A DNA stretch of 64,000 nt from Thermodesulfobacteriota bacterium (GTDB lineage Bacteria; Desulfobacterota_D; UBA1144; Nemesobacterales; Nemesobacteraceae): contig OZ242322.1 of the NCBI GenBank assembly GCA_965208155.1, positions 2,175,204 to 2,239,203 on the forward strand, written 5' to 3'. The translations under genes were made by a program, and so were the position numbers. The number at the start of each line of letters is the position of its first letter. The first letter of the stretch is position 1. Positions 32,798-54,415 of this stretch are shown here, one piece after another. The notes under the pieces were generated by a model. That model saw only the letters and a program-made list of their open reading frames with translations, ran no database searches and was not told where the DNA came from.

Positions 32798-33964
32798 TTG
32801 AACGTACACGAATACCAGGCCAAAAAGCTTCTCTCTGATTCCGGGGTCAAGGTTCCGGGCGGACAGGTCGTTTTCAGTGCGGATGAGGTCTCGGAGGTAC
32901 TCGATACCCTTAACTCTGAAAAATACGTGGTAAAAGCCCAGATTCACGCCGGCGGCCGGGGCAAGGGAGGCGGAATAAAGGTAGTTGACAATTCCCACGA
33001 CGCTATGGCTGCCGCAGATGAGATAATCGGCATGAGCCTAGTTACCCACCAGACGGGCCCGGAGGGCAAGACCGTGGGAAGCGTTCTTATTGAGGAAGCT
33101 TCCAGTATAGAAAAGGAGTTCTACCTCGGCATGGTGATTGACCGCTCCCGGGAAAAAGTGGTCGTTATGGGAAGCCCCGAGGGCGGGGTTGAGATCGAGG
33201 AAGTGGCGGCCAAGTCTCCCGAGAAGATAATCAAGGAGCATGTTGATATCTCGCTTGGCGTTCAGCCTTATCAGTGCCGGAAAATCGCTTATTTCATGGG
33301 TCTTGAGGGTGGTGCCGTGAGGCAGGCTGTATCGTTTATTTCATCCCTTTACCGTGTGTTTATCGAAAAGGACTGTTCCCTCGCGGAGATAAACCCGCTT
33401 GTTCTAACTTCAGACGGTAACATAGTGGCTCTTGACGCGAAGATTAATTTTGATGATAACGCGCTTTTCCGCCACCGCGACATCGCAGGGTTAAGGGACA
33501 GGGACGAAGAGGATCCGCTTGAGCTTGAAGCAAGCGACGCGGGTATAAGTTTCGTTAAACTTGACGGAAATATAGGGTGTCTCGTTAACGGTGCGGGGCT
33601 TGCCATGGCTACCATGGATATTATAAAGCACCACGGCGGAGAACCCGCAAACTTCCTTGACGTCGGCGGAGGGGCTACCACGGAGCAGGTTACAAAGGCG
33701 TTTAAGATGATCCTTAGTGATGAGAACGTAAAGGCCATTTTCGTTAATATTTTCGGTGGTATAATGAAGTGCGACACCATCGCCGATGGTATCGTGGAAG
33801 CCGCAGACGAGGTCGGAATAAACGTTCCTTTAGTGGTCAGGCTTGAAGGAACCAACGTTGAAGCCGGAAGGGAGATTCTTTCAAACTCCGGTCTTGACAT
33901 CCAGACCGGGGCCGACATGAAAGAAGCCGCGTCCAAGGTAGTTGAAGCTGCCAAAGCTGCCTGA
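32798..33964 (+). CDS. sucC: Succinyl-CoA synthetase beta subunit (ADP-forming)
   Basis: TTG start. ATP-grasp N-terminus ([12 protein letters not shown]) and a ligase-CoA C-terminal domain. No sucD follows. Confidence 0.9.
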
Positions 33965-34190
33965 TTTCAGCGGGTTGCGATTTAACTTCTAGATTCTTTT
34001 CATTAAATTATGAGCGCGTAATCACCCGTTAGAGCGGCATCTTCTCTGGTTTTTGTGTTAATATATAATCTTGGGTGGGTTTTCCTTTATATGGCATGGT
34101 TTTATTGCCGTTTTTTGACCGGATTTGAAAGGGATACGAGATTTTTTAATTTACTAAAGAATTCCATCGATGTTATCTGAGAACTGAGAA

Positions 34191-35453
34191 GTGAAGATAT
34201 CAAAACTAAGACTTAAGAATATTAAATGTTTCAAAGACACTGAGATTTCGTTTGAGGGCGAAAAAGGCGGTGTTAAAGACTGGTCTCTTTTTGTGGGAGA
34301 TAACGGACAGGGAAAAACAACAATTCTTAGAAGTCTGGCCGCAGGGCTATGTGATAAGGAAGGGGCATCGGGTCTTTTATTGGAATTGTATGGAGAATTT
34401 CTAAGACGAGGTAAAAAGGAAGGGTCTATCGAGATTTGTTTAAGAGATGATGAAGGTGAGCAATATACTATTAAAACTTCTATAAGGGGCGATAACGAGT
34501 CTGTTTCTCAGGATGTCTTTCGGGGTGACCGTGTAGGTAAAAAAGGTACTAATGAGGTTAAAGATTTTAAGAGAGAAGAAATTTTCGCGGTAGCTTACGG
34601 TGCGGGTAGGTCTGTTACAGGTACAGAATCCTATGAAGAATATGCATTGGTCGATTCTGTGTATACGCTCTTTAATTATAAATATGCTCTGCAGAATGCG
34701 GAACTGGGAGCAAGCAGGGTTAAGCTTCATTCCGATGAAGAATGGGGAAAACTTAAAAACATTTTAAAAAGAGTTTTAATGTTTCGGGAAGACGATGAGA
34801 TTTCTCTGGAAAGAACAGGATTATATGTTGAAACTAGAAGAGGTAAAGAGTCTTTTAATACTTTAAGTGATGGGTATAAATCACTGACTTCTGTTATTTT
34901 AGATTTTCTAAGCTGGAATCTGATTTATAGAGAAGATGAAGATTTTGATTTAAGCAATCTTTCAGGAATTTTCATCATTGATGAGCTTGAACAGCACCTC
35001 CACCCAAAATGGCAACGGAGAATAGTAAAAATCCTTTCAGAGCAGTTTCCAAAGGTACAGTTCATATGCAGTACGCATACTCCTATTTGTGCTTTGGGGC
35101 TTAGCGACTTGGAGTGTGAATCTTGGCTTTTCAAAGCTGCTTACGTAAACGGGCATAGTGATATTGAGAAATTTGATCTTCGAGAAGATTTTAGGGGTTA
35201 CAGATCTGATCAGATATTGACTTCGGGCATTTTTGACCTTACAGACACGAGGAGCGTTTCCGTAGAAGATAAACTGGAAACTTATAGAAAGATATATCTC
35301 AAGGAAGAAAGCGAAAGAAGCGAGGAAGAAAAGCTGCAGTTTCATGCTATTGAAGACGAACTGAGAGATTTACCTATGTGGGACAACGAAAAAGAGAAGA
35401 AACAAAGGGAAGAGTTAATCAAATTACTTAAGAGCCAAAAAAAGAAATCCTAA
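34191..35453 (+). CDS. AAA_15/AAA_21-type ABC-like ATPase, Septu PtuA-like (copy 1)
   Basis: GTG start. N-terminal Walker A (FVGDNGQGKTTILRSL). C-terminal Walker B / D-loop / H-loop (IFIIDELEQHLHPKWQRRIV...ICSTHTP). Immediately followed by an HNH gene. Confidence 0.6.
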   Translation: MKISKLRLKNIKCFKDTEISFEGEKGGVKDWSLFVGDNGQGKTTILRSLAAGLCDKEGASGLLLELYGEFLRRGKKEGSIEICLRDDEGEQYTIKTSIRGDNESVSQDVFRGDRVGKKGTNEVKDFKREEIFAVAYGAGRSVTGTESYEEYALVDSVYTLFNYKYALQNAELGASRVKLHSDEEWGKLKNILKRVLMFREDDEISLERTGLYVETRRGKESFNTLSDGYKSLTSVILDFLSWNLIYREDEDFDLSNLSGIFIIDELEQHLHPKWQRRIVKILSEQFPKVQFICSTHTPICALGLSDLECESWLFKAAYVNGHSDIEKFDLREDFRGYRSDQILTSGIFDLTDTRSVSVEDKLETYRKIYLKEESERSEEEKLQFHAIEDELRDLPMWDNEKEKKQREELIKLLKSQKKKS

Positions 35454-35456
35454 ATA

Positions 35457-36200
35457 ATGATAAAGATTGAACGTGGAAGGCCCCCTAAAAACACCGCTAT
35501 AGACAAGAGAAGAGAAAGAGAGCTTCGGAAAATTAGGAAATTAGTAAAGTCTAGAGAATTAAAATCTAAGCATTTTGAAAATTTGTGGTCAGACCCAAAA
35601 GTTAAAGACTTCCTATACGAGTCTCAACATGGTAAATGCTGTTACTGTGAAAGAAAACGAGACAAAAGAGAGTCTGACGTAGAGCACTTTCGCCCCAAAG
35701 CTGAAGTTAAAGAAGCCGGAGAAGGCCATCAGGGTTACTGGTGGCTTGCCTATAGCTGGGAGAACTTACTTGTAGCTTGCAAAACGTGTAATCAAGAGTA
35801 CAAGAAATCAAAATTCCCACTAAAGAACAAACGGAAAAGAGCCTACACAGAAAATTGTGACCTTGGCGAGGAAGAACCATTTTTGGTCAACCCGCTAGAA
35901 GAAAAACCGGAATTGCTTATAGATTATGATCTTAGGGAAACTAGGCTTATGGCGAAAGCCGTTGGAAGGTGTGAACGAGGTGAGAGAACAGTCAATGAAC
36001 TGACAGGAATAAACGATAGAAAAGTGATGGAGAAAAGAGCAGACAAACTCAAGGATTATCGGGTGTGGGCATATTTAAAGAATAATGGGAGCGATGAATT
36101 AAAATCAGAGGCCGATGAACGTCTGCGGGAATACGTCTCTCCTTGCAGTGAATTTTCAGGATTTGCAAGATTCTATTTTCAGAAGGAAGGATGTCTTTAA
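35457..36200 (+). CDS. HNH endonuclease, Septu PtuB-like (copy 1)
   Basis: CCYCE...VEHFRPK...ACKTCN HNH core. Starts 3 nt after the ATPase stop. Confidence 0.65.
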   Translation: MIKIERGRPPKNTAIDKRRERELRKIRKLVKSRELKSKHFENLWSDPKVKDFLYESQHGKCCYCERKRDKRESDVEHFRPKAEVKEAGEGHQGYWWLAYSWENLLVACKTCNQEYKKSKFPLKNKRKRAYTENCDLGEEEPFLVNPLEEKPELLIDYDLRETRLMAKAVGRCERGERTVNELTGINDRKVMEKRADKLKDYRVWAYLKNNGSDELKSEADERLREYVSPCSEFSGFARFYFQKEGCL

Positions 36201-37354
36201 TGAAAGACTCCTTCCCGCTAGAACAGTCGGCCGAAACGCCTGCATTTATCTACAATTTAAGTGAAGTAAAAAAAAGGGCGAAACTTCTTTCCCAAATAAA
36301 AAACAAATCAAACTGCAAAATTCTTTATTCTGTAAAACCATTACCCTTGTACAGAGTCTTAGAGGAAATGGAATCCTTGGATGGTTTTTCTGTAAGTTCT
36401 TTTTTTGAAGCTGAATTAGCAAAAAAAGCCTGTAAAGACAAAAAAGAAATTCATTTCATCAGTCCTGGAATTAAGAGTGAACAATGGGAGGATATCTCAA
36501 CCGCTGTCAATTATTTAACCTTTAATTCCTTAGAGCAGTTGTCCTGTTTTGAAACTAGGCTCAAAAAGCAAAGCTACGGTATAAGAGTCAATCCGGAAAT
36601 CTCTTTTATTACAGATCCCAGATACAATCCCTGCCGTGAGTTTTCAAAGCTCGGTGTTCCCATTGCTCAGATTAAAAATAAGATTTCTGACGACCCGGAT
36701 TTTTTTAAAAAAATAGAGGGAATTCATTTTCACACAAACTTCGAAAGCAGAGATTTTTCTCATTTAACTGAGACATTTTCAAAGCTGAAGACCGAACTTG
36801 CGGACGAGCTTAAAAGGTTCAAGTGGATTAACTTGGGCGGCGGCTATCTCTTTGATGAATCGGAAAATCTATCCCTTTTTTATGAACTTATAGATGAACT
36901 TAACGATAATTACAATTTTGATGAAATTATTATCGAGCCTGGTACCTTCCTAGTTAGAGACAGCGGATATCTGGTTTCTTCTGTTATTGATCTTTTTCAG
37001 AGGGATGGAAAAAATGTTGCCGTTTTAGACACCACTGTGAATCACCTTCCGGAAGTCTTTGAATACCAATACGAACCTGATGTTCTAGGGGATGACTTCT
37101 CCAACAAGAATGAGTATATATTAGCCGGGAGCAGTTGTCTGGCAGGGGATGTTTTTGGTGTGTATCGTTTTGAGAACGAATTGGAACTGGGTTCAAAAGT
37201 GATCTTTGAGAAAGTGGGAAGTTATTCCCTAGTTAAGGCGCACACGTTTAATGGGATTAATCTTCCTGATGTTTATTGTCTTGAAGATGATGCTGGACTG
37301 AAAAGGGTGAAAAGCTTTACACTTGAACAATATGTGCACTATTACGGAGGATGA
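36191..37354 (+). CDS. Carboxynorspermidine/carboxyspermidine decarboxylase-like PLP enzyme (Orn/DAP/Arg decarboxylase fold)
   Basis: 387 aa. AFIYNL..., the conserved ILAGSSCLAGDVFGVYRFE and FNGINLPDVY blocks align with NspC. Overlaps the HNH stop by 10 nt. Confidence 0.65.
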   Translation: MSLMKDSFPLEQSAETPAFIYNLSEVKKRAKLLSQIKNKSNCKILYSVKPLPLYRVLEEMESLDGFSVSSFFEAELAKKACKDKKEIHFISPGIKSEQWEDISTAVNYLTFNSLEQLSCFETRLKKQSYGIRVNPEISFITDPRYNPCREFSKLGVPIAQIKNKISDDPDFFKKIEGIHFHTNFESRDFSHLTETFSKLKTELADELKRFKWINLGGGYLFDESENLSLFYELIDELNDNYNFDEIIIEPGTFLVRDSGYLVSSVIDLFQRDGKNVAVLDTTVNHLPEVFEYQYEPDVLGDDFSNKNEYILAGSSCLAGDVFGVYRFENELELGSKVIFEKVGSYSLVKAHTFNGINLPDVYCLEDDAGLKRVKSFTLEQYVHYYGG

Positions 37355-37357
37355 TTC

Positions 37358-38731
37358 ATGCGATTTTTAGAAAGAGAAATATCTTTTCCTAAAATTCAAG
37401 ACAATAGAGATTTGCTGTCATATATTGAAGAGCAAACGTCTTCTTGTTTGAGTGAAGAAGGCTTGCTACCTATAAGGATTGCTGTTACTGACAGCTCGGG
37501 CTCAGATTATAAGTGCGAAGTTGGTGCTTTGTGCACGGAAGACACAAGCAGCTTTGAGGAAGCGAAGCTAGTATTTGAGTTCAAGAAACGAAAGTTTGAA
37601 AACACCAAAAATTTTAATGTCGTTTTCTTGATTCCTACTGGAATTGGTTGTGAAATCGGGGGTCACGCTGGAGATGCCACCCCGGTTGCAAGACTTTTAT
37701 CTTCCAGTTGCGATAACCTCATCACTCATCCGAATGTTTTTAACGCTTCTGACCTCAACGAGATGCCCGAGAACAGTCTCTATGTTGAAGGGAGTACAAT
37801 TTGTCGTTTGATGATGGGAACTGTAGGTCTCCAACCCGTTAGGTCTAACAAAATTCTTGCCGTTATAGATAAAAATGAATATAAGATTTTTGAAAACGCT
37901 GCTGTTAATTCTATCAACGCTGCCAGGGCAGTCTTGGGAATAGAATGTTCCGATATAGTGAAATTAGACCCCTCAATAACTATGGAATCCGAATATTCGT
38001 CTTCCCAAAGAGCTGTCGGCACCATTGACGGAATCGATAACTTGTTCTCCATCTTGAAAAAGTACGAAGGAAGTTATGACGCAGTTGCCATCTCGTCGAT
38101 AATCAATGTCCCCGAGCATTATCACAAGGAGTATTTTCGTTGCAGGGGAGAGATGGTTAATCCTTGGGGAGGGGTAGAAGCCATGCTTACCCATGCTGTT
38201 TCTTACAAGCTCAACATTCCTTCGGCCCATTCCCCGATGTTTGAATCTCCTAAAGTTGCTCATCCAGACCCCGGAGTTGTTGAAGCCAGGATGTCAGCGG
38301 AAGCCGTCTCCACAACTTTTTTCCATTGCGTTTTAAAAGGACTTCATAAAAGTCCTAAAATTATTACCGACCCGGACATGTTTCATTATGACGATATTAT
38401 CTCGGCAAAAGACATTTCCTGCTTGGTTATTCCTGATGGCTGTCTGGGTCTTCCTACTCTTGCAGCTTTGGAACAGGGAACAAAAGTTGTTGCAGTAAAG
38501 GAAAACAAAAACCTGATGAAAAATGATCTCAACGAGCTTCCTTGGGATACCGGACAATTTATTCAAGTGGAAAACTATTTAGAGGCTGCCGGAGTTTTAA
38601 ACTCTATTAAAAATGGAATTGATCCTTCTTCGATAAGACGACCTTTTAAAACTTTAGATCCTTTTGGAACTTCAGATATTTCTCGTGATTCTGAGTATCA
38701 GAGGCCAGCTTTGAAACAGGTAAAAGGATAG
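37358..38731 (+). CDS. Hypothetical 457-aa protein, no recognisable family (glycine-rich VVFLIPTGIGCEIGGHAGDATP motif)
   Basis: Long uninterrupted ORF. RBS GGAGGA sits upstream. Starts 3 nt after the decarboxylase stop. Codon style matches the neighbouring island genes. Confidence 0.5.
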   Translation: MRFLEREISFPKIQDNRDLLSYIEEQTSSCLSEEGLLPIRIAVTDSSGSDYKCEVGALCTEDTSSFEEAKLVFEFKKRKFENTKNFNVVFLIPTGIGCEIGGHAGDATPVARLLSSSCDNLITHPNVFNASDLNEMPENSLYVEGSTICRLMMGTVGLQPVRSNKILAVIDKNEYKIFENAAVNSINAARAVLGIECSDIVKLDPSITMESEYSSSQRAVGTIDGIDNLFSILKKYEGSYDAVAISSIINVPEHYHKEYFRCRGEMVNPWGGVEAMLTHAVSYKLNIPSAHSPMFESPKVAHPDPGVVEARMSAEAVSTTFFHCVLKGLHKSPKIITDPDMFHYDDIISAKDISCLVIPDGCLGLPTLAALEQGTKVVAVKENKNLMKNDLNELPWDTGQFIQVENYLEAAGVLNSIKNGIDPSSIRRPFKTLDPFGTSDISRDSEYQRPALKQVKG

Positions 38732-38821
38732 GTTTCAGAGAGGTTACCACTCTTCATTTTATATTGAGTGTGCAGCTATCTGTTACAAAAGGTGTTACGT
38801 TTTAAGTTGAGAGATAAGAGA

Positions 38822-40123
38822 ATGCATATAACCAGTCTATATTTAGAAAATATAAAATGCTTTGAAAAGCTTACTTATAAATTCCAGGGTGATGGGGGAG
38901 CTTCGCTCGTCATTGCCGGGGATAACGGCGATGGTAAATCTACAATACTACGGAGCATTGCAATTTCTTTATGTGATCAGTGGTCTGCGGCAGGATTGCT
39001 AAGAGAACTGTCAGGAGAATTTATACGTGATAGATGTGACGAAGGAGTAATCAAACTCGGCTTAATATCTGGCAAGAAAAGAAAGAAAAGGTTCGAGATT
39101 GTTACACGTATAAGGTGGGATAGTAAAGAAACATATGAATACCCTTACAGGGAGATTAATCAGATCAAAACTAAGACTAGGGAGCCTGAAGAAATTGAAG
39201 ATTCCAACTTTGATTGGAAAGCGATATTTGCAACAGCTTATGGGTCTGGATTAAGAACTGTGGGAACACAAGATTTTCAGCACTACTTTACTGGCGATTC
39301 TATTTACTCTTTATTTAGGGACGATGTAACTTTGCAAAACCCCGAGTTGGCCATACGACGGATTTCCACTGGTGTTGTAGAAAAACCAACCGCAATCGAC
39401 TCTCAGGAAGAAATAGAGGCTTTTCAAAAAAATTTATTGGATTGGCTTGGTGAGATTTTGATACTTGATAACAAGTCTCTGGAAGTTCACGGAAATGGCA
39501 TTTTTGTTTGCACAAAAGGCAGTAAAACCAAAGTTCCCCTTGTAGCTACAGGCGACGGGTACAAAGCTCTAACGGCCTTGATTCTGGATATGCTCTCATG
39601 GTGGTTTCTCTACGCTTTCTATGGAGCAAAAACTGGAAGCAGAAATAAGGCGAAAATAACTTTGGATAGTCTTAAAATGATGAAAGGAGTTGTAATTATT
39701 GACGAAATAGAACAACATCTTCATCCGAAGTGGCAGAGCAAGATATTACCTTCCTTAGAAAAGAATTTTCCTCAAGTGCAATTTATTGTTGCTACCCATT
39801 CTCCATTAGTTGTGTCCTCCTCAGAAGATGATGTTTTAGTTATAGAAGATGGTCGGGCAAGAAAAGAGAAGTTATATGGCTGGCTTCCAGAAGACGTCTA
39901 TATACAGATGGGTAGAGAAGACGAAAGACCGCCCGAAATTGCAGAAAAAATATCTGAACTTGAGTTGCTGTATAGAGAAAAAATAAGTGGCACTATAAGC
40001 AAACAGGATGAAAAGAGATTCAATAGTATCTACGAACAACTTAAGGTTGAATTGCCTTCGCACGACCCAGTCCTGCAGACAATCAAATTTAATGTAATGC
40101 GTAGGTCTATACAAGATGATTGA
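38822..40123 (+). CDS. AAA_15/AAA_21-type ABC-like ATPase, Septu PtuA-like (copy 2)
   Basis: Walker A (IAGDNGDGKSTILRSI). C-terminal VVIIDEIEQHLHPKWQSKIL...VATHSPLVVS. Paralogous to the ATPase at 34191. Confidence 0.6.
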   Translation: MHITSLYLENIKCFEKLTYKFQGDGGASLVIAGDNGDGKSTILRSIAISLCDQWSAAGLLRELSGEFIRDRCDEGVIKLGLISGKKRKKRFEIVTRIRWDSKETYEYPYREINQIKTKTREPEEIEDSNFDWKAIFATAYGSGLRTVGTQDFQHYFTGDSIYSLFRDDVTLQNPELAIRRISTGVVEKPTAIDSQEEIEAFQKNLLDWLGEILILDNKSLEVHGNGIFVCTKGSKTKVPLVATGDGYKALTALILDMLSWWFLYAFYGAKTGSRNKAKITLDSLKMMKGVVIIDEIEQHLHPKWQSKILPSLEKNFPQVQFIVATHSPLVVSSSEDDVLVIEDGRARKEKLYGWLPEDVYIQMGREDERPPEIAEKISELELLYREKISGTISKQDEKRFNSIYEQLKVELPSHDPVLQTIKFNVMRRSIQDD

Positions 40124-40126
40124 ACC

Positions 40127-40780
40127 ATGAGATTGGTAAATAGAGGCGAGGAACCAGCTACCCTGAAACGAAATTCAAAAAAATGGACGGAAGAGTTGCT
40201 CGATGCTCATGAAAAAGGGGATCAGAACGCAATTGAAAAAGCAGAAAACAGATACAGAAAGCCCGAAATTCAAAAAGCTCTAAAAGATATGTACGGCGAT
40301 CTTTGTTGCTATTGCGAGGGAACCGTGAGTGCTAATAGCTTTGGGCATATCGAACACCGAAAGCCCAAGAGAGAGTTTCCAAAATATGCGTTCAATTGGG
40401 ATAATCTTCATTGGGTTTGTTGGAAATGTAACAATGCAAAAAGTGACAAATGGAATAGGGACAATCCAATTTTAGACCCCACTGCTGATACAGAAATAAT
40501 TCCGACTCATCTTAAACCTATACCTGGTCTTGAAACTATTAAGTTTGATTCTGAAACGGGCTCAGGAAAAACCACAATAGAGCATGCTGATTTGAACAGG
40601 TTAGATTTGGCAAAAGCAAGACGCAAAGTTTGTAATTATGCTTTGGCGTTAAAAAATACGCTTGAAGCAGGGGAAGAATTTTTGAGCGATATAAACATTG
40701 AGAACATTAAGAACCTGATTAATGAGATGAGAGTAGAAGAGTACGGCAGTTGTGTAAAAGAAATTCTTGAACAATCCTGA
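40127..40780 (+). CDS. HNH endonuclease, Septu PtuB-like (copy 2)
   Basis: CCYCEG...IEHRKPK...CWKCNN. Starts 3 nt after the ATPase stop. Confidence 0.65.
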   Translation: MRLVNRGEEPATLKRNSKKWTEELLDAHEKGDQNAIEKAENRYRKPEIQKALKDMYGDLCCYCEGTVSANSFGHIEHRKPKREFPKYAFNWDNLHWVCWKCNNAKSDKWNRDNPILDPTADTEIIPTHLKPIPGLETIKFDSETGSGKTTIEHADLNRLDLAKARRKVCNYALALKNTLEAGEEFLSDINIENIKNLINEMRVEEYGSCVKEILEQS

Positions 40781-40991
40781 TCAAAGGGATTCCAAAATCA
40801 TTGAGCATCTGTGTCAGCGGATCGTTAAAACCCTTCCAGGGATCAGCAAATCCTCTATGTCCTCCGAGCTCTAACTTGCCAGTGGTCTCTTGATTCTTTG
40901 GAGGGAGATGCTTGTCAAAAAGCTCCCTAAACAGATCTTTTGTTTCTTTTTGACCTTTCGGTTCAAAAGCCTTATTTTTTCTACCCATAGT

Positions 40992-41053
40992 GGCGTATCC
41001 TCCTATTGATTTATTTGGCTGAATTCAAATCAACCGGATACGCCGCTTTTTTT
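40992..41053 (+). terminator. Candidate intrinsic terminator / structured junction after the six-gene operon
   Basis: 9-bp inverted repeat ggcgtatcc ... ggatacgcc (with a nested tgaattca palindrome) followed by gcttttttt. Confidence 0.3.
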
Positions 41054-41088
41054 CAAGTTCTCCATACGCCAGTTTTAACTATATCTCT

Positions 41089-41547
41089 GTGGAAGGGGGC
41101 AAGAGGGTTATGTTCACCCGTACCACGGACCTTGTGCAGAGACTCCAGATGGCCCACAGAGAGCTTCGTATGGAGAGTATGCTTGAGCGACTCAACCGTT
41201 ATGACCTGCTGATTCTCGATGATCTTGCGTACGTACGCAAGGACAGAGACGAAACCAGGGTGCTGTTTGAGCTTATATCGAACCGTTATGAGAGCAGATC
41301 ACTGCTTATCACGGCGAATCAGCCCTTTGAAGAATGGAAAAACGTGTTTCCTGACGAAAATACGGCTGTGGCGGCAGTGGATCGCCTTGTACATCACTGC
41401 GTAATCCTTGAAATGAACGTGGAGAGCTACAGATTGCGTCATGCTATGGAGAAAAACAAGGAGGAGGTGAAGAAAAAACGGGGCAGACCCGCGAAATACG
41501 CTACCGAGAATAACTCGGAGGGTCTGACCTCGAAAACTGGAGATTGA
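41089..41547 (+). pseudogene. IS21-family IstB helper ATPase, C-terminal fragment (no Walker A)
   Basis: Aligns with the IstB C-terminal two-thirds (DLLILDDLAYV...LITANQPFEEW...DRLVHHCVILEMNVESYRL). The N-terminal ~110 aa are missing. Confidence 0.6.
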
Positions 41548-41594
41548 TATCTGTCAGATATGCCGGTATCGTCTCACAATCAGCGACACCCAGA

Positions 41595-41714
41595 GTGTCA
41601 TCTTGATTGTCGCAACAGTGCCATCTTGATTGTCGCGCTACACGTCCGAATTCGCTCGGAATAGGTGTCCGAATTCGCTCGGAATCACTGTCCGAATTCA
41701 GTCGTAATATGCAA
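41595..41714. repeat. Five ~19-bp direct repeats at 23-bp periodicity (two sequence classes) ending in a 27-mer shared with 43671-43697
   Basis: Units start at 41595, 41618, 41644, 41667 and 41690. The first two are gtg(t/c)catcttgattgtcgc. The last three are gtccgaattc(g/a)(c/g)tcg(g/t)aat. Confidence 0.8.
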
Positions 41715-41834
41715 CCAGTCCGCTTGCGATAGCAAGCGTAGATATCTATCTCGAAGAGGAGCAAGAGAACGCGTAGGCACTCTATCTCTCCTTGGGGATA
41801 ATATACTTAACTATCCAAAGATAGTTTTCTGTAG

Positions 41835-42224
41835 TTAATTGAGTTTTATGGCGTTTTTTAATATTGCCTTAGTTGCATTCTTTTGGGTTCTGTGGAAGTA
41901 GTAGGCAAGCCCAGCGAATAGGAAAGAGCATAGGATTGGCAATACAATCTTTTGTTCCCACCATATAATCTGGGTCTCAGGGGACCGCTCAAGAAGGTTC
42001 CAGATATAAGAAAGTCCAAAGAAAAGAAAACCGGTAAATAGGGACCAGCATGTTGTTGAGGCGGTATTGAAAGCATTTAGTTGCTCAAGTTCTATTTCTC
42101 TGACTCCGAACACCTTGTCTTTTCTCCCCCAATAATCGCTCTCAACACGAGCTCCCAGCCTTTCAGAAGGACTCCCTGAATCATTCATTGGACTCCTCCC
42201 TCTCGGACTTGGATATAAGCTCAA
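41835..42224 (-). CDS. Hypothetical small membrane protein (2 predicted TM)
   Basis: 129-aa ORF in AT-rich DNA. Overlaps the upstream small ORF by 44 nt. Confidence 0.3.
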   Translation of the reverse strand: MSLYPSPRGRSPMNDSGSPSERLGARVESDYWGRKDKVFGVREIELEQLNAFNTASTTCWSLFTGFLFFGLSYIWNLLERSPETQIIWWEQKIVLPILCSFLFAGLAYYFHRTQKNATKAILKNAIKLN

Positions 42225-42477
42225 TTCCGTATTTGCTTAAAGCATCGAGTAAAACTAAGGTAGCAGCATAAGATGAGAGATATCCACATGTCAAGCAAAC
42301 GGTCAGAAAAGCCGGATAGTAGACCTTGTCGCTTACGCTTGGAACTTTGATTAGTTCATCCATCAAGGTGTATTTGTCTTTCTTGCATTTTGAGCAAACA
42401 TTGAGTCCGTGCTTGTCAATCCACCTCTTTATCTTTTCTTGGTCCTCTTGCGAGAGTTTTTCCAGCTTTTCAGCCAT
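42181..42477 (-). CDS. Hypothetical small protein with CxxC...CxxC
   Basis: 98 aa (CSKCKK...CLTCGY). First gene of a two-gene minus-strand unit. Confidence 0.3.
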   Translation of the reverse strand: MAEKLEKLSQEDQEKIKRWIDKHGLNVCSKCKKDKYTLMDELIKVPSVSDKVYYPAFLTVCLTCGYLSSYAATLVLLDALSKYGIELISKSEREESNE

Positions 42478-42611
42478 AAAATCTTTCCTCTTGTTTTAAA
42501 TTTGGTTGCGGGGATTATACCCGGCGGACTGGACTTCTTGAGTTTCCGGTGATGCTTCCACTCCCACAATTTTAGCCGGTACAGCCCCGGAAGCAACCTA
42601 AGTCCTTTCTT

Positions 42612-43268
42612 GTGGGGAGGGAATGCGCTGAGAGGGAGAGCAGGAAGCAGCGGCGTCTGGTACGCGACGCTTGCTTCAGACTCAGGGCCGATCTGGTAGA
42701 TATTGACTACGGACATTCCCGTAATCTGAGAAAGGCTCAGATAGCCGAGCTTGCCCATGGAGACTGGGTAGAGCGGGGTCGCAATCTTCTCATAACGGGT
42801 CCTTGCGGAAGCGGCAAGACATGGATAGCTTGCGCTCTGGGTCATAACGCGTGTCTGAAGAGGGATATCGGTTCGTTACTACAGGATCTCAAGACTGTTT
42901 CTGGTTCTCTCCCAGGCAAAGGTGGACGGAAGCTACAACAAGCTTCTCTCAAAACTGGCAAGAGTGAACTTCTTATCGTAGACGACTGGGGTCTTGAGGC
43001 TGTGACCACGGCCCAGAGATATGATCTGATGGAGATAATGGATGACCGTTACGGGGAGAGTTCTACTGTGGTGATAAGTCAGCTTCCGGTAAGCGAGTGG
43101 CATGGCATCATAGGGGACAACACTGTTGCCGACGCGATCCTTGACAGGATCGTTCACAACTCTCATCGTCTTGAGCTCGGTGGGGAGTCGATGAGGAAAA
43201 TCGTTGCGGAGAAGGAAGCGAAACAGGAGTTTGTAAAAGGAAAAGAAGAGAATAGAGATGATTGTTAG
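42612..43268 (+). pseudogene. IS21-family IstB helper ATPase, N-terminally truncated
   Basis: Walker A GPCGSGKT, Walker B LLIVDDWG, and a C-terminal DRIVHNSHRLELGGESMR. Only ~30 residues precede the DIDYGH(=DFDF) region. No istA nearby. Confidence 0.5.
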
Positions 43269-43484
43269 GCTCTGGGGGCATGAGAGAAAACAGAGGTGAT
43301 TTTTAGGAGAAAAAACAGACTTTTTACTCGTCGTTTGACAGGGCAATTCTGAACGTGTTAGAGTCTGTTTTGAAGAAGAAAAAAATGGGGTACACGTGTT
43401 CACTTTCCCTCGGAATTGGTGTTCAAATAAATCGTAATACGCACCGGGCATTGATAATAGCTCCGAATAAAGAAAGGATTTGAA

Positions 43485-43556
43485 ATGAAGCTAGTAAAAA
43501 TAAAGTTAAGTAATTTCAGGTGCTATCAATCAGAGACGGAATTTGTATTAGACTGA
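43485..43556 (+). pseudogene. 23-codon N-terminal stub of another AAA_15/OLD/PtuA-type ATPase
   Basis: MKLVKIKLSNFRCYQSETEFVLD* has the same N-terminal signature as the two PtuA-like genes (MKISKLRLKNIKCF...). It is cut off before Walker A. Confidence 0.3.
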
Positions 43557-43649
43557 ACTTCAAGTAGCAAACCCTATTTCAACCGGAACTTTTTCTCCAC
43601 CGACCTGCTCAATGATGTTTTTGGGAAAAAGGAACCGAGAAGTTCAATC

Positions 43650-43697
43650 GTCCGAATTCGTTTGTAATCGCTGTCCGAATTCAGTCGTAATATGCAA
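43650..43697. repeat. Two 23-bp-periodic repeats. The second (43671-43697) is identical to 41688-41714.
   Basis: gtccgaattcgtttgtaat, then ctgtccgaattcagtcgtaatatgcaa. The 27-mer is identical at both loci and followed by unrelated sequence. Confidence 0.8.
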
Positions 43698-43874
43698 GCT
43701 GGCCATATTTAAACTTGACAATCAGCCATCCTCTAATTCAACACTTAACCATTATGTAATTACCTTTTATAAAAGAAGAAATTTAGTAAAACAATTAAAT
43801 GAAATCATTAATCTAACAATTAGTCGAAATATAAAATTGCAATTAGTCGCAAAAATAATTATATTTGATTCGTC

Positions 43875-45121
43875 ATGCTTGAAGCAGATTGTACGCGACA
43901 CGTTGAATCGCGATTGAGAGAGGTCATTAAGGATTCTCCTGTCGTGTTGATTCAGGGCCCCCGCCAGTGCGGAAAAACTACCCTTGCCCGCATGGTGGCA
44001 GGACCGAGGGCTATCACTACATAAGCCTTGATGAAGAGGATGTTCGTGCCGCCGCCGAGGCGGATATTGCGGGATTTGTAAAGACTTTGCCCAAGCGCGT
44101 AATTCTGGATGAGGTACAGAAAGTGCCGGAGATATTCTCATCCATAAAGCTTGCGGTTGACCGCGACCGTGCTCCAGGGCGTTTTATACTGACAGGTTCG
44201 GTAAGCGTGCTGCATGTTCGCGGGATAACAGATTCTCTTGCCGGTCGCATGGATATAATCAGGTTGCATCCTTTTTCACAAAGTGAAATTGAGGGGAACA
44301 CGCCGGGTTTTCCGGAAGCTCTGTTCTCCTCGGAGTTTGATATATGGCAAAGTGGGAGAGATCTGTCGGAGATAATTGTTATGGATAAACTGGCTGCCGG
44401 CGGATACCCGGTTGCCCTTCAGCGCTCTGCGGAGAGGCGTGCCGACTGGTACAGAAAGTATATAGAGGTGCTCGTGGAGCATGATTCTCGTGACATTGCC
44501 GCAATACGTTCATCCGGGATTCTGTCACAGCTGCTTTCCCTTGCTGCCGCTCAGACCGCGAAGCTTCTTAACGTAACCGGTCTTTCCTCTTCTTTTAAAC
44601 TTAGCCGCAATACGATTCATGACTACCTTCTTCTTCTGGAAAAAATGTTTTTGCTTGAACGGCTGCCCGCGTGGCACTGCAATCACCTCAAGCGTCTGGT
44701 CAAGGCTCCTAAACTTCACGTTACGGATACGGGTGTCGCTTGCGCGCTTATGAGGATGAATAGCGCCGCACTCTCGGCGAACAGGCCTTTTTACGGCCAT
44801 CTTCTTGAGACCTGGGTGCTGCAGGAACTGCGTCGCCAGTTAAGCGGACACGCAGAGCCGCATATCTTCTCTCACTATCGGGAAAAGGATGGGGCGGAAG
44901 TCGATATCGTTATAGAACGCGGGGCAACAGCTCTTGCCGGGGTTGAAGTCAAGGCGTCGGCTACTGTGAGAGGTTCGGATTTTCGGGGATTGCGCAAACT
45001 CAGGGCTGCAGCGGGCGATCGTTTTTCCTGCGGAGTCGTGCTTTATAACGGAGAAAGAAGTCTGCGGTTTGGTGCGGGACTCTATGCGGTGCCTCTGCAG
45101 TCACTCTGGGCGACGGAATAA
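43875..45121 (+). pseudogene. DUF4143-type AAA ATPase, frameshifted
   Basis: The Walker A part (MLEADCTRHVESRLREVIKDSPVVLIQGPRQCGKTTLARMVAGPRAITT*) ends at a stop near 44023. The rest (from GYHYISLDEEDV...) continues in another frame to 45121. Confidence 0.6.
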
Positions 45122-45326
45122 GGCAACTAGGGATAGCAGAACGCTTTTCAATGATATTTTCTGGATGTATATCTGGATTGAAAAGATTCTAAAATCATTA
45201 ATTCAAGCTATTTAGGATCAAATATTTAATGCGTTTTCTATTGATTTTCCCTTGACTTTTATTTTACTCTGAAACCTTGACACTCCACTTTTGATGATTA
45301 GTTTGAGGGATGGAGGTACATGCTAG

Positions 45327-48205: not shown

Positions 48206-51200
48206 CTAAGAAGGTGGTTCTAACGATATCCGCCACGTGTTCAGTACTTGGCACTGATGATTCTCGCTTATCCGGTTAGTCAAGTACTCCAGAAGATCTT
48301 CCTGCCTCGGCTGACCGAAAACAAGACGATAAACAGCAAGCATTCTCTTGAGTCGGCGGAAATGCGGTTCTTCTTTGCTGTAGGGAAGAATCGGTACATG
48401 CCGTTCAATACTCGCGCCTTCCTTAAGTTCGTAAAGCCAATACGGGATTAAATCACTCGCCCCGGTTGGACGGTCTTTCTTTGCTAATTCAAACAGGCAA
48501 GACCATGGGTCGCCTTGCCTGTTCCATTTGCCCCTTAAGGCACTCAATCCATACGCCTTGGCTATGTTTTTTCGAACCGCATGTCCCTTGTATCGTTGGA
48601 TTCGTCCTTCCCTTTGCTCTAAATCAACAGGATTGCTCGGCAGGTTCCAGTGAATTACCGAATGACACCAAGTATGGAAATCCAAGCCTTCCTGCCCAAT
48701 GGACGTCGAGGCGAGAACAAACGGTCTGAACGGTGAGTTAAAAGCATCCCGCACGGCGTCAGCCCTAACGACAGCACCTCTGTCGTCTTTCAGTTCACCA
48801 AACCGCAAAGCAAATCGACACCGCGTGTTATAGTCTTTAAGCTCAATCTTCTGTGACTCCGGACGGACAATCACTTCATCTAGCTGTAACCGAGACGTGC
48901 GTATAGAGAGCGAGGAACCTATTGAATCGCCGATGGTTTCAACCCGTTCGGTCTCTGGCTCGTCAATAACGCCAAGAGACTCGACAAGGCAATGCACTTG
49001 TTCATCCAACAATGACTGGATATTTCCTTCAAGGCAATGCTGAAGCGAAAGCCTCCAGTAAGACTCATCTCGTCTGTTTCCTCGAAGAAGTGCAATGCTT
49101 TCCGGAAGATTAAACAAAGTTCGAAAACCTTCAGAAATCCGAACCGCACCACAAAGAAGTTCCGAAGAGTCCAAATTAAGCGAAGGAGATTGTCGCCGAA
49201 GCGCGCGCAAGGCGCAGACACTTGGCGCCGCCACGGCCATCAGGCTTAGAACCTGGAGAAGGTCCGCCGGGGGTCGTCCAAGTGGTGAATCGATAGCGTG
49301 ATCCATGGTCTGGCGAAAAAGTTCCAAATGTTCTCTCAGTCCTTCCACTCTATCACTCGAGTCCTCTTTTGCTATTGAAAACCACCCTTTTTCATCATCA
49401 AGAAGCCAATGCTTTATGTCGGGAAACCTCTTCCCGTCCAGAAGCGCTGGCGCCGCCCAGTACCATCGCTGATCCTCCGGTCCGCTGGCAGGAGCCTCAA
49501 CAAGCAACTGATTAAGTGACGGTCTGATAAGCTCCGCGGCACTATTGAGCAACTCTGCGGCCGAGATAAGCTTATCCTTCTGGTGAGATACAGCGATGAT
49601 CAAAGGGTCTATCAGCATCGCTAGAGCCGGACTCGGGTACATCAAAATCAGCACGGGCATTCCGGTCGGGCGGTTTTCTGAGCCGCGGGAGTATCGAAGA
49701 AGGGGGCGCAGTTCGTCATAGAGCTGATCGTGGGTAATTGGTTTACGTAAACCGGAAAGCATCTTCCGCTCCGCCTCGTACGAGCAGAGAGAAGCTATGG
49801 CGTCAGGAACAACGTTCCACGCGGAGAAGACCAGAGATTTCGTTATGTCAGGTATATCGGCATAAGAGCCACCGGGTCTGCTGTACGGCATAGAGGGCGG
49901 CAGCCAGAGAATTTTCCAGAGTCCCCGATTTATCGTGAGATCGAACAGGTTTCTCATCCTCGGATTGGACGGTGACACTTCCCGATATGATTGAATGTCA
50001 TCCTTGTGTAAAAGATGGTCTGCGTCTGCCCGCAAAGCCTCAATCAGTTCTTCTGGCGCATTCTCACACTGGGCTTCCAGTTTCTGGCGGAATTCATACC
50101 TCCTCAGAAAGTTTATGAGATAGGGGCTTGATTTCCAGTATTCGATGATGTCGCGCGCGCCGACGCTTGACGCGACCCTGTCGGCCAAAACAGCCCCGTG
50201 AATATCCCGTGGTTCCAACGCTACTTCTTGTGGAAATTCTGAGAACATGGCGTCGCGCGAAGGCGTCATGCCCACTCTTTCCGTACGGCACATCACCCTG
50301 ATGAGTTTTGACTGGAGAACATCACGAGCGTTTGATATAGCCGTATCGTCGTCAGATCCGAGAGAATAAAGAGACTGCCTGAATGCTTGGATGTCCCTTT
50401 TGATGCCGTCTATAACCGTCTGGGGATCAACCGACTCGGAATGAGAGAGAAATCCCAATGTCTTCAGAAAGTCTGGGTAATGGTCATCATCCCGTTCATG
50501 GTCAAGAGAAAGCATCTTGTACGGAGTGGCCGACAAAAGCAGCGTTTTGACATTCTCGTATTGAAACAGCTTGTGAGCCAGCCGGTTTTTGTGGTTTTGA
50601 GAGTCTTCTTGATTTTTGGGATCCAGCAGGCTCCTAAACCTCTGAAACTCATCGAGTATGATAAGATCCGGCTCAAGCATATCAATGCTCATCTCGGCAA
50701 GGCGAAACCGCAATTCCGAAACAAGCCAGAGCCGTTCAGGGTCACCCCAAAGAATCCGCCTTCTGGATCGCGCGCAGAAATTCTTAATTTTCTCGTAAAA
50801 CTCCCGGTCCTCGCTTACATTCTTTACGAACTCGTCACGGATATCCTTATCAAGGCTTTCAGGTTTCCATTTGCGTGTCCACCACCACCAGTTTTCATCA
50901 CTCACGCGGCACTGGAGCAGCCGCCTTAAGCCCGCGGGGCTAATATTCAGCCTGCCTTTCAGCAGAAAGTGTATCAGCGCTCGCTCTTTAACCTTTCCAT
51001 CTCTCGATCTGGGATCGAAGCTTGTTCCCGGCGTGAGGCTCACGTAATTTACGCGGTTCTTTCGAATATCGGAGATATCTATTGGGAGAAGGGAAAGACG
51101 TGTAGATCTTTCGAATTTCTGTTCTCCCGAAACATTAAGTCGACGGAGGTTTTGAGACGCGATGCTCATATTCGAGCAGACATAGACAATATCGATCCGA

Positions 51201-51412
51201 CCGACCTTCTTGGCGAGCAAGTGCTCAGTCGCAAGGGCGATAACGCCGCCGGCCACGAGGGTTTTTCCGAGTCCAACCTCATCCGCTACGAGAAAACGAT
51301 CCGTAGTTTCAGGATCTGTATAGAAACGGCGAAACACATATTCGGCGGTCCGCCGCTGAAAGTCCTTAAGTCTTCCGAGGACAAGCTTCGTTTTATGTGA
51401 TTTTCCCGTCAC
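48206..51412 (-). CDS. SNF2-like superfamily-2 helicase (1068 aa)
   Basis: N-terminal motif I DEVGLGKT, DExx box LILDEFQ, and C-terminal motifs V/VI (ASTSIGQEGLDFHTWCHSVIHWNLPSNPVDLEQREGRIQR). Confidence 0.7.
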   Translation of the reverse strand: MTGKSHKTKLVLGRLKDFQRRTAEYVFRRFYTDPETTDRFLVADEVGLGKTLVAGGVIALATEHLLAKKVGRIDIVYVCSNMSIASQNLRRLNVSGEQKFERSTRLSLLPIDISDIRKNRVNYVSLTPGTSFDPRSRDGKVKERALIHFLLKGRLNISPAGLRRLLQCRVSDENWWWWTRKWKPESLDKDIRDEFVKNVSEDREFYEKIKNFCARSRRRILWGDPERLWLVSELRFRLAEMSIDMLEPDLIILDEFQRFRSLLDPKNQEDSQNHKNRLAHKLFQYENVKTLLLSATPYKMLSLDHERDDDHYPDFLKTLGFLSHSESVDPQTVIDGIKRDIQAFRQSLYSLGSDDDTAISNARDVLQSKLIRVMCRTERVGMTPSRDAMFSEFPQEVALEPRDIHGAVLADRVASSVGARDIIEYWKSSPYLINFLRRYEFRQKLEAQCENAPEELIEALRADADHLLHKDDIQSYREVSPSNPRMRNLFDLTINRGLWKILWLPPSMPYSRPGGSYADIPDITKSLVFSAWNVVPDAIASLCSYEAERKMLSGLRKPITHDQLYDELRPLLRYSRGSENRPTGMPVLILMYPSPALAMLIDPLIIAVSHQKDKLISAAELLNSAAELIRPSLNQLLVEAPASGPEDQRWYWAAPALLDGKRFPDIKHWLLDDEKGWFSIAKEDSSDRVEGLREHLELFRQTMDHAIDSPLGRPPADLLQVLSLMAVAAPSVCALRALRRQSPSLNLDSSELLCGAVRISEGFRTLFNLPESIALLRGNRRDESYWRLSLQHCLEGNIQSLLDEQVHCLVESLGVIDEPETERVETIGDSIGSSLSIRTSRLQLDEVIVRPESQKIELKDYNTRCRFALRFGELKDDRGAVVRADAVRDAFNSPFRPFVLASTSIGQEGLDFHTWCHSVIHWNLPSNPVDLEQREGRIQRYKGHAVRKNIAKAYGLSALRGKWNRQGDPWSCLFELAKKDRPTGASDLIPYWLYELKEGASIERHVPILPYSKEEPHFRRLKRMLAVYRLVFGQPRQEDLLEYLTNRISENHQCQVLNTWRISLEPPS

Positions 51413-53223: not shown

Positions 53224-54415
53224 TTAAGCCCGCGTGGAGATCCGAGAGCAGTGTTTTAACGTTACCCCAGCGGTATTCCATCTGCCTGACTCCTGAATTT
53301 CCTCTCCACTGGTCAAGTGCCCTTTCATTCACAAAGCGGGAACGAACGTTTTTAAGGCGCCGTTCGCGGTTTTCGACAAGCATCCTGCTCTCAGGATCAT
53401 CGGCGACATCACCCTGAGTTTTCAAGACGCGACGACACCAGGCTGAGACAAAATTCATCGCCTGCGAGGTTATAGTATGTCCCTGACCAGAAGTAAGTTC
53501 CCAGAGTCCTCCAAGCGGAAGACCTATGTGCTGGCAGTTTTGCAGATCAACCTTCCACTTATCAAGATTGCCCCGATGCTTATCTTTGAGTTCCCCACGG
53601 TCCGAAAGCTCCGCCAGCATAAGATTATAAAGAAAAGCGGCGCCATGCATTATTACAGAGAAAAACTCCGCGTAGTCCAGCAAGTCCTTTTGGACAGCGG
53701 AAAAGTTATCCCTGTCCGGATGTTCCCACGGAAACTCGCAATCAACAGGCTCGCACTTCTGTGCCAAATGGGTGAGCAAACTCTCTTTATGAGATTCCAA
53801 GAGACGGTCAAGCAAGAAGCTTGCCTCCTCATATTCCAAAGTGAAACTCAAGTTCTGGATGTCATAGGGGAAATTGCTTGGCGGTTCAGGCAGGCGTGGA
53901 TGCCATATACTAGCCTCTGAAAAACCATTTTTCCCTTCTCCACCACTGGCAGAGATCTCAATCCGCTTGTACAGTTTGTCCACGTGGCTTTGATATTCAT
54001 CCTGCGAACACTCGATCCGACGAATGCCCCACACCCCAAGACCGTTCCAGTAGACTGAGCTTGGCAGTCGCTTCACTGCTTTCCCTGCTACTTTTCCGAA
54101 AACACCTGCATGATCAGAACTTTCCAGAAGGGGACCGATCAAAGTCGTCTCCATTTGGCGGGCTTTTATAGCGAAAACTGGTGGGAGCACGCGTTTTTTT
54201 TCGAGTTCTCTATAAACCCAGGGAACAAAAACCATGTACCGAAGACGGGTCTGGATCGTGCTCGTACCGGGAAATAGCCTGTCCGCAAACGAATCCCTGA
54301 TAGCACCCAGTCCAAGTTCCTCTCGACTATCTCTCTCTTGGAAAAGCGCCAAGATGCGAAGAGTCCGCTCCCTAGCGACCGGGTCGTGGTCTATCCATGT
54401 CAATGTGGACGGCAT
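53198..54415 (-). CDS. Hypothetical 405-aa protein, first gene of the PLD/helicase operon
   Basis: Long ORF that overlaps the PLD gene by 26 nt. No family recognised by eye. Confidence 0.4.
   Translation of the reverse strand: MPSTLTWIDHDPVARERTLRILALFQERDSREELGLGAIRDSFADRLFPGTSTIQTRLRYMVFVPWVYRELEKKRVLPPVFAIKARQMETTLIGPLLESSDHAGVFGKVAGKAVKRLPSSVYWNGLGVWGIRRIECSQDEYQSHVDKLYKRIEISASGGEGKNGFSEASIWHPRLPEPPSNFPYDIQNLSFTLEYEEASFLLDRLLESHKESLLTHLAQKCEPVDCEFPWEHPDRDNFSAVQKDLLDYAEFFSVIMHGAAFLYNLMLAELSDRGELKDKHRGNLDKWKVDLQNCQHIGLPLGGLWELTSGQGHTITSQAMNFVSAWCRRVLKTQGDVADDPESRMLVENRERRLKNVRSRFVNERALDQWRGNSGVRQMEYRWGNVKTLLSDLHAGLNGGNGAKP

Follow-up and report, generated by a model that had tools for sequence, protein, structure and literature searches.

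We analysed a 64,000-nucleotide (nt) stretch of the genome of a Thermodesulfobacteriota bacterium (GenBank assembly GCA_965208155.1, contig OZ242322.1, positions 2,175,204 to 2,239,203 of the forward strand), here called the window, for a Septu-type defence locus at 34191-40780. Six co-directional open reading frames (ORFs) were listed there on the + strand. They encode an ATPase and an HNH nuclease (ATPase1 and HNH1, pair 1), a decarboxylase, a DUF3326 protein, and a second ATPase and HNH nuclease (ATPase2 and HNH2, pair 2). The spacings between the six genes are, in order, 3, -10, 3, 90 (or 36) and 3 nt, and the 10-nt overlap between the HNH1 stop and the decarboxylase start is identical in relatives. 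The longest ATPase2 ORF starts at GTG 38768 and spans 451 amino acids (aa). ATG 38822 (433 aa) is most likely the true start, because it is the start called for database protein P0241, to which ATPase2 is 100% identical, and because a purine-rich stretch resembling a ribosome-binding site lies upstream.

The block starts directly after sdhA, sdhB and sucC. Its G+C content is 0.37-0.41 in the composition profile, compared with about 0.52 for the genome. Promoter consensus matches at the island showed no enrichment over shuffled sequence, and no terminator-like hairpins were found in 33800-41200, where 6.5 were expected from shuffles. An Rfam scan of the region returned no match at E ≤ 0.1, so no retron RNA or other known non-coding RNA (ncRNA) family was detected, and no reverse transcriptase-like ORF was present between 33 and 46 kb.

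Features of the two-pair locus and its surroundings, in window coordinates
Feature	Position	Strand	Basis or detail
Upstream intergenic region, probable promoter region of the island	33965..34190	+	G+C falls from ~0.53 to ~0.37
ATPase1, PtuA-type ABC/AAA_15 ATPase, pair 1, 420 aa	34191..35453	+	PADLOC, Pfam, solved structures
ATPase1 Walker A; Walker B; STHTP	34296-34319; 34968-34988; 35070-35084	+	Pattern match
HNH1, PtuB-type HNH nuclease, pair 1, 247 aa	35457..36200	+	PADLOC, NCBIfam, motifs
HNH1 CCYC; VEHF; WENLLVACKTCN	35637-35648; 35679-35690; 35757-35792	+	Pattern match
Pyridoxal phosphate (PLP)-dependent fold-type III decarboxylase, 387 aa	36191..37354	+	Pfam, NCBIfam
DUF3326 (PF11805) protein, 457 aa	37358..38731	+	Pfam; predicted alpha/beta enzyme
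Variable defence slot, DUF3326 stop codon to sigma-70 gene	38740..45197		Homology break against relatives
ATPase2, PtuA-type ATPase, pair 2, 433 aa from ATG 38822	38822..40123	+	PADLOC, solved structures
ATPase2 Walker A; Walker B	38918-38941; 39689-39709	+	Pattern match
HNH2, PtuB-type HNH nuclease, pair 2, 217 aa	40127..40780	+	PADLOC, NCBIfam, solved structures
HNH2 CCYC; IEHR; WDNLHWVCWKCN	40304-40315; 40349-40360; 40397-40432	+	Pattern match
IstB (IS21 helper ATPase) fragments, two	41089-41547; 42612-43268
23-nt-spaced repeat arrays (GTCCGAATTCGCTCGGAAT...)	41594-41721; 43650-43704		IS21-end-like
Two small overlapping ORFs, no family match	41835-42477	-	Between IS21 fragments
PDC-S01 candidate, AAA_14 + DUF4143 ATPase	43967-45121	+	PADLOC, 458 bits
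Azaca system, complete	48209-54415	-	PADLOC, 431, 567 and 1129 bits (ZacA, ZacB, ZacC)
ZacC helicase	48209-51412	-
ZacB	51412-53223	-
ZacA (DUF6361)	53201-54415	-

Family assignment and divergence of the two pairs

Both ATPases matched PADLOC profiles for PtuA, ATPase1 with up to 200 bits (E = 1e-59; best PDLC00292 and PDLC00304) and ATPase2 with 179 bits (best PDLC00269). Likewise, HNH1 and HNH2 matched PtuB profiles (best PDLC00339, 174 bits, and PDLC00337, 155 bits, respectively); the best sub-profiles differ between pair 1 and pair 2. Pfam AAA_15/AAA_21 was matched by both ATPases, and TIGR02646 (cut-off 52.15) scored 59.7 bits with HNH2, above the cut-off, and 47.5 bits with HNH1, just below it. 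The best solved-structure matches of both ATPases were Septu PtuA 8ee4 and the PtuAs of retron I-A, and HNH2 matched the PtuB chains 22bv_F, 9vh1_F and 8ee7_C; HNH1 is tied to PtuB through profiles only. 8ee4 and 8ee7 are Septu type I structures. The solved type I PtuA is only distantly similar (57-72 bits), the ATPase1 match being confined to the C-terminal part. Both ATPases show the features of Septu PtuA, namely an ABC/AAA_15-type ATPase with Walker A, Walker B and H-loop, and in both pairs a TIGR02646-type HNH protein lies immediately downstream, as expected of PtuB.

Septu type I, a PtuA ATPase with a PtuB HNH nuclease, was reportedly described by Doron in 2018. Each pair of the window resembles it in having PtuA followed by PtuB, 3 nt apart, with Walker and HNH motifs intact, and PADLOC would label each pair as Septu. 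Type I has two genes and one pair, whereas the branch represented in the window regularly adds a decarboxylase and a DUF3326 gene, making four, and the window locus holds two pairs around a single enzyme module. A single pair is also what the canonical definitions prescribe, with a reverse transcriptase (RT) added in type II (PMC8565338), in agreement with a first-pass annotation of the locus, made from the sequence alone, which held that known Septu loci carry one pair. The PADLOC survey of Septu-associated genes reported RT and Hma alone (PMC8565338). Septu type II, or retron I-A (Ec78/Eco7; RT, ncRNA and PtuAB), likewise combines PtuAB with a further module, not itself a nuclease, within a single operon, and in retron Ec78 the added module controls the PtuAB nuclease (PMC8565338, PMC12819146). 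The extra module of the window differs in consisting of two metabolic-type enzymes. No adjacent RT gene with msr/msd ncRNA, as in retron I-A, was found, and the NCBIfam retron (Ec78) equivalog cut-offs were missed by both pairs (124 and 123 bits against 500 for PtuA, 51-52 against 150 for PtuB).

The alignments indicate that the two pairs are homologous, old and both intact. ATPase1 and ATPase2 aligned over their whole length by BLASTP (33% identity over 434 columns, E = 7e-59), and 144 of 397 aligned positions (36%) matched in a global alignment. For HNH1 and HNH2, the BLASTP match covered the HNH core only (28% over 74 aa, E = 2e-6), with 23.5% identity in the global alignment. No significant similarity between the pairs was detected by blastn, the best match being 15 nt long (E = 0.012). 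The first-pass annotation had estimated 35-45% identity by eye; the ATPases lie at the low end of that range (33-36%) and the nucleases fall clearly below it (23-28%). Its principal claim, that the pairs are divergent and not a recent duplication, is borne out by these values and by the missing DNA similarity.

Catalytic motifs are intact in all four proteins, and every Walker A and HNH string quoted in the first-pass annotation is present. Walker A reads GDNGQGKT in ATPase1 and GDNGDGKS in ATPase2, Walker B reads IFIIDEL and VVIIDEI, and both nucleases carry CCYC, (V/I)EH and W(E/D)NL..C..CN. The H-loop was pattern-matched as STHTP in ATPase1, with ATHSP at the aligned position of ATPase2. 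Near-identical copies, as a recent tandem duplication or an assembly artefact would leave, were looked for by protein alignment and blastn and were not found, which excluded both explanations. Independent assemblies (L003/L004 and L094/L095) show the six-gene layout as well, which, together with the low identity, speaks against both.

Distribution and origin of the pairs in related genomes

To place the locus in its clade, nine distinct related Candidatus Dadabacteria genomes were compared (L001/2, L003/4/5, L006, L007, L008, L009, L010, L094/95 and the window). The ATPase1-HNH1-decarboxylase-DUF3326 unit was present in all nine. It was kept in L007 despite a different upstream context with no sdh genes, and in L010 it lies beside a relaxase gene, between two integrase genes. 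Pair 2 was found in three genomes, with Kiwa or nothing in the other six. When the window was compared with relatives that have no pair 2, homology ended at 38739, 8 nt past the DUF3326 stop codon, and returned at 45198, ahead of a sigma-70 gene. The slot so delimited contains pair 2, IS21 debris and a PDC-S01 candidate in the window; pair 2 in L003/L004/L005; pair 2 and, on the opposite strand, Kiwa in L094/L095; KwaA-KwaB (Kiwa) in L001, L006, L008 and L009; and no recognised defence genes in L007 and L010. Kiwa (KwaAB) thus holds the post-DUF3326 position of pair 2 in four genomes and stands beside it in L094, and its proteins are unrelated to pair 2. The slot is therefore a general defence hotspot and not a Septu-specific site. 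Pair 2, where present (window, L003-L005 and L094/L095), always lies directly behind the DUF3326 gene.

Alleles of the two pairs were combined differently among these genomes. In L094, ATPase2 and HNH2 are 100% and 99% identical to those of the window, and ATPase1 and HNH1 are 76% and 73% identical; L006 has a close pair 1 (94% and 91%) and no pair 2. These mosaic combinations indicate that pair 2 alleles recombine independently of pair 1 alleles. Across the relatives, identity to the window was 69-94% for ATPase1 and 62-91% for HNH1, 87-91% for the decarboxylase, 90-96% for the DUF3326 protein, and 92-100% for sdhA, sdhB and sucC. By these comparisons the decarboxylase and DUF3326 genes are the best-conserved part of the locus, not passengers. 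In L008 (5760-8090), a transposase gene of the IS30-like type (HTH_38 and rve) interrupts ATPase1, and in L009 (6766-8054) ATPase1 is split by a frameshift, which could be an assembly error; despite this, HNH1, the decarboxylase and DUF3326 are intact in both. At 90% clustering, at least 120 ATPase1 clusters were found at 56% identity or more, and 19 ATPase2 clusters at 61% or more.

The first-pass annotation had proposed either a heteromeric complex built from both pairs or two specificities. A single ATPase-nuclease machine would suit the common orientation and proximity of the pairs, the lack of terminator-like sites between them and the intactness of both. However, it is very improbable in view of the six of nine genomes that keep pair 1 without pair 2, the independent alleles of L094, the broken pair 1 of L008 and L009, and the occurrence of each branch elsewhere as a single pair. 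The absence of pair 2, the mosaic alleles, the broken ATPase1 and the cluster counts together make any obligate two-pair complex unlikely. Two specificities are plausible and appear to fit the evidence better than one complex.

Three of the four pair proteins were closer to relatives outside the Dadabacteria clade than to their counterparts in the window. ATPase2 shares 48% identity with the PtuA of L096, 43% with that of L098 and 41% with that of L100, all unrelated metagenome loci (33-36% with ATPase1), and its named relatives at 38-39% come from Scalinduaceae and Chthoniobacterales. HNH2 shares 42% with L028, 40% with L098 and 39% with L046, and HNH1 shares 40% with L018, against 23-28% between the two. 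The outside relatives of ATPase1 (L018, 37%; L022, 38%) are about as close to it as ATPase2 is. HNH1 represents one widespread PtuB subtype and HNH2 another, and the ATPases fell on separate deep branches of a neighbour-joining tree, which is a rough one with no bootstrap and no canonical outgroup.

Because ATPase2, HNH2 and HNH1 have these closer outside relatives, the two pairs are probably not local paralogs; the comparisons indicate that their split predates arrival in this lineage and that horizontal acquisition brought them together. True paralogy, through tandem duplication within the lineage followed by fast divergence, would account for homologous, adjacent pairs and would draw on the rapid evolution of defence genes (pair 1 identity falls to 62-94% even between close relatives), but we give it hardly any credence: the three proteins are clearly closer to loci of other lineages (Scalinduaceae, a Chthoniobacterales protein), no residual DNA similarity is left, and the nucleases are of different PtuB subtypes. 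The earlier description of the pairs as paralogs kept in one operon is consequently not supported, given the outside relatives and the presence of pair 2 in just three of nine genomes.

Linkage of PtuA-PtuB to decarboxylase and DUF3326 genes

The decarboxylase matched Pfam Orn_Arg_deC_N and Orn_DAP_Arg_deC, and matched TIGR01047 (nspC) over its full length with 269.6 bits, missing the equivalog cut-off of 409. These profiles place it among the fold-type III PLP decarboxylases, as a relative of carboxynorspermidine decarboxylase (NspC) below equivalog level. The DUF3326 protein matched PF11805 with 319.7 bits (cut-off 25) at profile positions 2-336 of 337. NCBIfam gave no match for this protein, an exact-protein look-up found no record of it, and no match to DUF3326 was returned when the plasmid collection was searched by tblastn.

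We examined ATPase2 relatives chosen solely for a long contig or for carrying a name. All eight (36-48% identity) were found in co-directional PtuA-PtuB-decarboxylase-DUF3326 operons: P0265 (L096, 48%), P0266 (L098, 43%), P0337 (L100, 42%), P0356 (L101, 38%), P0347 (L102, 36%), P0315 (L138, 38%), P0281 (L139, 39%) and P0381 (L140, 43% over the ATPase core). L100 and L139 are syntenic, leaving seven independent contexts. Operons of this branch encode a decarboxylase of the nspC-like type or, alternatively, a small protein of the SpeD family (PF02675). Neighbours of the eight loci include type I and type IIG restriction-modification, Mrr, HicAB, a SLFN-type helicase with a MazG-like gene, and an integrase/DnaB island. 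A phmmer search with ATPase2 against 1.84 billion representatives gave 14,372 clusters at E ≤ 1e-3 and 223 at E ≤ 1e-30, which indicates that the close ATPase2 branch accounts for only a small share of the PtuA superfamily.

Linkage was also assessed from the DUF3326 side, in an unbiased sample. Metagenome contigs were scanned with a DUF3326 alignment, and 48 loci had enough upstream sequence. PtuA and PtuB lay directly upstream of decarboxylase-DUF3326 in 14 of them. The remainder carried a glutathionylspermidine (GSP)-synthase-like gene (10/48), a family of about 510 aa without domain match (5/48), a nucleotide-cyclase-domain protein (4/48), a family of about 400 aa (3/48), a polysaccharide deacetylase (3/48) or assorted others (9/48). 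Median gene gaps in 34 PtuAB-linked loci were -4, -4 and +3 nt. PtuAB-linked DUF3326 genes had a mean G+C 0.05 below their flanks, the PtuAB genes being likewise low, whereas GSP-synthetase-linked copies averaged 0.05 above and look native. PtuA and PtuB distance matrices were congruent in a Mantel test (r = 0.52, p = 0.0005). In the DUF3326 tree, PtuAB-linked members were interleaved with those that have other partners, and GSP-linked members formed clades of their own; nearly all pairs of DUF3326 sequences are 47-60% identical.

We consider it reasonably probable that the window holds two separately acquired Septu-type PtuA-PtuB modules, of which pair 2 shares the enzyme module of pair 1. 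Both pairs belong to a Septu branch that normally has four genes (PtuA, PtuB, decarboxylase and DUF3326), in which the decarboxylase may be nspC-like and PLP-dependent or SpeD-like and of the pyruvoyl type. Pair 1 and the two middle genes form a four-gene unit inherited throughout the Candidatus Dadabacteria clade, and pair 2 is an exchangeable addition, carried in the variable defence slot that follows. We infer that pair 2 uses the products of the neighbouring decarboxylase and DUF3326 genes, because it is the sole sampled member without its own and always lies directly behind them. No remnant of a second decarboxylase or DUF3326 gene was found downstream of HNH2, where IS21 debris and the PDC-S01 candidate follow.

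In model systems, stand-alone Septu protects against phage as a PtuA6-PtuB2 assembly, PtuB being held by an oligomer of PtuA, and its nuclease is damped by ATP (PMC12819146). By analogy, each pair in the window most likely forms a separate PtuA-PtuB nuclease complex, and the two would differ in their triggers or targets. The decarboxylase and DUF3326 protein could produce a small, polyamine-like molecule by which the nuclease is gated, licensed or restrained. Such a role would parallel that of ATP in stand-alone Septu and that of reverse transcriptase with multicopy single-stranded DNA (RT-msDNA) in retron-Septu.

A polyamine-like product is suggested by the nspC-like or SpeD-family decarboxylase, the GSP-synthase-like neighbours of other loci, the pavettamine protein PavB and phage-encoded SpeD homologues, which have been described (PMC10407285). 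The window decarboxylase resembles that of the carboxy(nor)spermidine pathway (CANSDH with CANSDC/NspC). In other loci its place is taken by a SpeD-family protein, as in SpeD-type pyruvoyl decarboxylases, although these SpeD-like proteins reach 22-25 bits against an equivalog cut-off of 75.65. Known polyamine pathways pair the decarboxylase with a saccharopine-dehydrogenase-type CANSDH or with the aminopropyltransferase SpeE; here the partner is DUF3326. PavB is the DUF3326 protein of the pavettamine cluster pavABC, proposed for polyamine biosynthesis (bioRxiv 10.64898/2026.06.12.731819). As in the window, it adjoins a protein with an Orn/Lys-decarboxylase-type domain. The pavettamine cluster differs in its organism, in a Rieske-domain PavA fusion, in a JmjC protein and in having no ATPase-HNH genes.

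Several observations weigh against this explanation of the locus. Pair 2 lies 90 nt past DUF3326 in a slot that also takes the unrelated Kiwa, so its adjacency could be positional, and in model organisms PtuAB is functional with its two genes only (PMC12819146). PADLOC 2.0 had no match for either the decarboxylase or the DUF3326 protein, and an AlphaFold2 (AF2) model of the latter (predicted local distance difference test, pLDDT, 67.8) gave only generic Rossmann-like fold matches, none informative. PtuA and DUF3326 distances were not congruent (Mantel r = 0.04, p = 0.34), and strict co-evolution of the two was given up after this test. Together with the interleaved DUF3326 tree, the result means that nuclease and enzyme pairs are repeatedly recombined modules, or that the DUF3326 signal is saturated. 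The two enzymes are evidently selected on their own account, judging from their near-housekeeping conservation and their intactness where ATPase1 is broken (L008, L009).

The positional points would be explained if pair 2 were an autonomous two-gene Septu in a defence hotspot, functionally linked neither to the middle genes nor to pair 1. Two genes suffice in model systems (PMC12819146), a 90-nt gap precedes ATPase2, and the slot has also received Kiwa, IS21 and PDC-S01. We regard such autonomy as possible but unlikely, since all eight sampled ATPase2 relatives carry their own decarboxylase and DUF3326 immediately downstream, and pair 2, which alone lacks this module, nevertheless sits directly behind a DUF3326 gene wherever it occurs.

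The points concerning the enzymes would fit housekeeping polyamine genes without a defence role, beside which Septu-like pairs insert, or with which they travel on mobile elements as an addiction module. The enzyme pair plainly leads a life of its own, in native-looking metabolic loci, in phages and next to a broken ATPase1. Its conservation (87-96%) is like that of sdhA and sucC and exceeds that of pair 1 (62-94%), the copies linked to GSP synthetase are native in appearance (+0.05 G+C), no co-phylogeny was seen between PtuA and DUF3326, and phages have pairs of SpeD-like and DUF3326 genes without PtuAB. This explanation is nonetheless somewhat less likely even than autonomy of pair 2. Linkage is 8/8 from the PtuA side and 14/48 from the DUF3326 side, the genes overlap or lie at most a few nt apart, the whole unit is of foreign G+C and sits inside mobile or defence islands, and both non-homologous decarboxylase types occur with PtuAB, which indicates that linkage was kept through component replacement. 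We retain two separately acquired pairs with a shared enzyme module as the preferred reading.

Full-text searches found no literature linking Septu to DUF3326/PF11805, decarboxylases or polyamines. Within the limits of the PADLOC 2.0 models and the searchable literature, the four-gene arrangement is an undescribed Septu variant. A defence island with two diverged Septu pairs would in itself be nothing unusual; it is the bracketed decarboxylase-DUF3326 partnership that stands out. The double-pair locus is a rare elaboration, found only in the Dadabacteria clade among the loci examined. We tentatively propose, as a possibility and not as the likelier outcome, a new Septu type in which PtuAB is controlled by, or acts with, a polyamine-like molecule from its own decarboxylase and DUF3326 protein, the window having two pairs of different specificity on one shared module.

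Few anti-phage systems are as widespread as Septu, and there is still debate over the way in which it senses infection. If confirmed, a two-enzyme module of the polyamine type would add a metabolic layer of control or effector function to Septu, much as retrons took over PtuAB, and the orphan family DUF3326 would gain a first testable context. One enzyme module between two diverged nuclease pairs would be a natural experiment on sharing and requirement. For annotation, current tools would call two ordinary Septu systems and overlook the conserved partners.

Decarboxylase-DUF3326 genes were also seen in other company, in what looks like partner swapping around a constant core. Cyclase-domain partners (PF00211) occurred in L055, L067, L069 and L072, with one weak PycC match (E = 2e-4). 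The 510-aa family was the partner in L037, L038, L041, L048 and L070, and the 400-aa family in L026, L033 and L074; neither family had a Pfam, PADLOC or NCBIfam match. About 30 phage contigs from IMG/VR (L103-L137) carry a SpeD-family decarboxylase next to a short DUF3326 gene, with no PtuAB. The phage DUF3326 proteins are about 325-350 aa long and lack the N-terminal 85 residues of the bacterial form. The occurrence of the enzyme pair with other partners and in phages hints, if the proposed role is true, at a contest between host and virus over a metabolite.

A gammaproteobacterial metagenome-assembled genome (L011, 7723-11356) has decarboxylase-DUF3326 with an unknown 353-aa gene and no PtuAB. 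This islet has a G+C of 0.36-0.38 in a genome of 0.5-0.6 and lies beside a Mutator-family transposase; the absence of PtuAB suggests that the enzyme cassette also moves alone. In two unrelated four-gene loci, L096 (4519-5670, - strand) and L098 (6757-7908, - strand), PtuA is immediately preceded by a divergent gene for a T6SS_Tle1-like/DUF2235 hydrolase, which may be a further conserved neighbour in this sub-branch.

Surrounding defence island

Gene content shows that 34-54 kb of the window is a multi-system defence island, interrupted by sigma-70 and DnaK genes. A complete Azaca system occupies its distal part. Nearer to pair 2, the PDC-S01 candidate aligned to profile positions 50-420 of 422 and may be N-terminally truncated. 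The IstB fragments and repeat arrays look like decayed or nested IS21 copies that fill the slot past HNH2. Of the two small overlapping ORFs between them, one encodes 98 aa with two Cys pairs and the other a hydrophobic 129-aa product, apparently a membrane protein. These ORFs could be a small toxin-like or defence pair.

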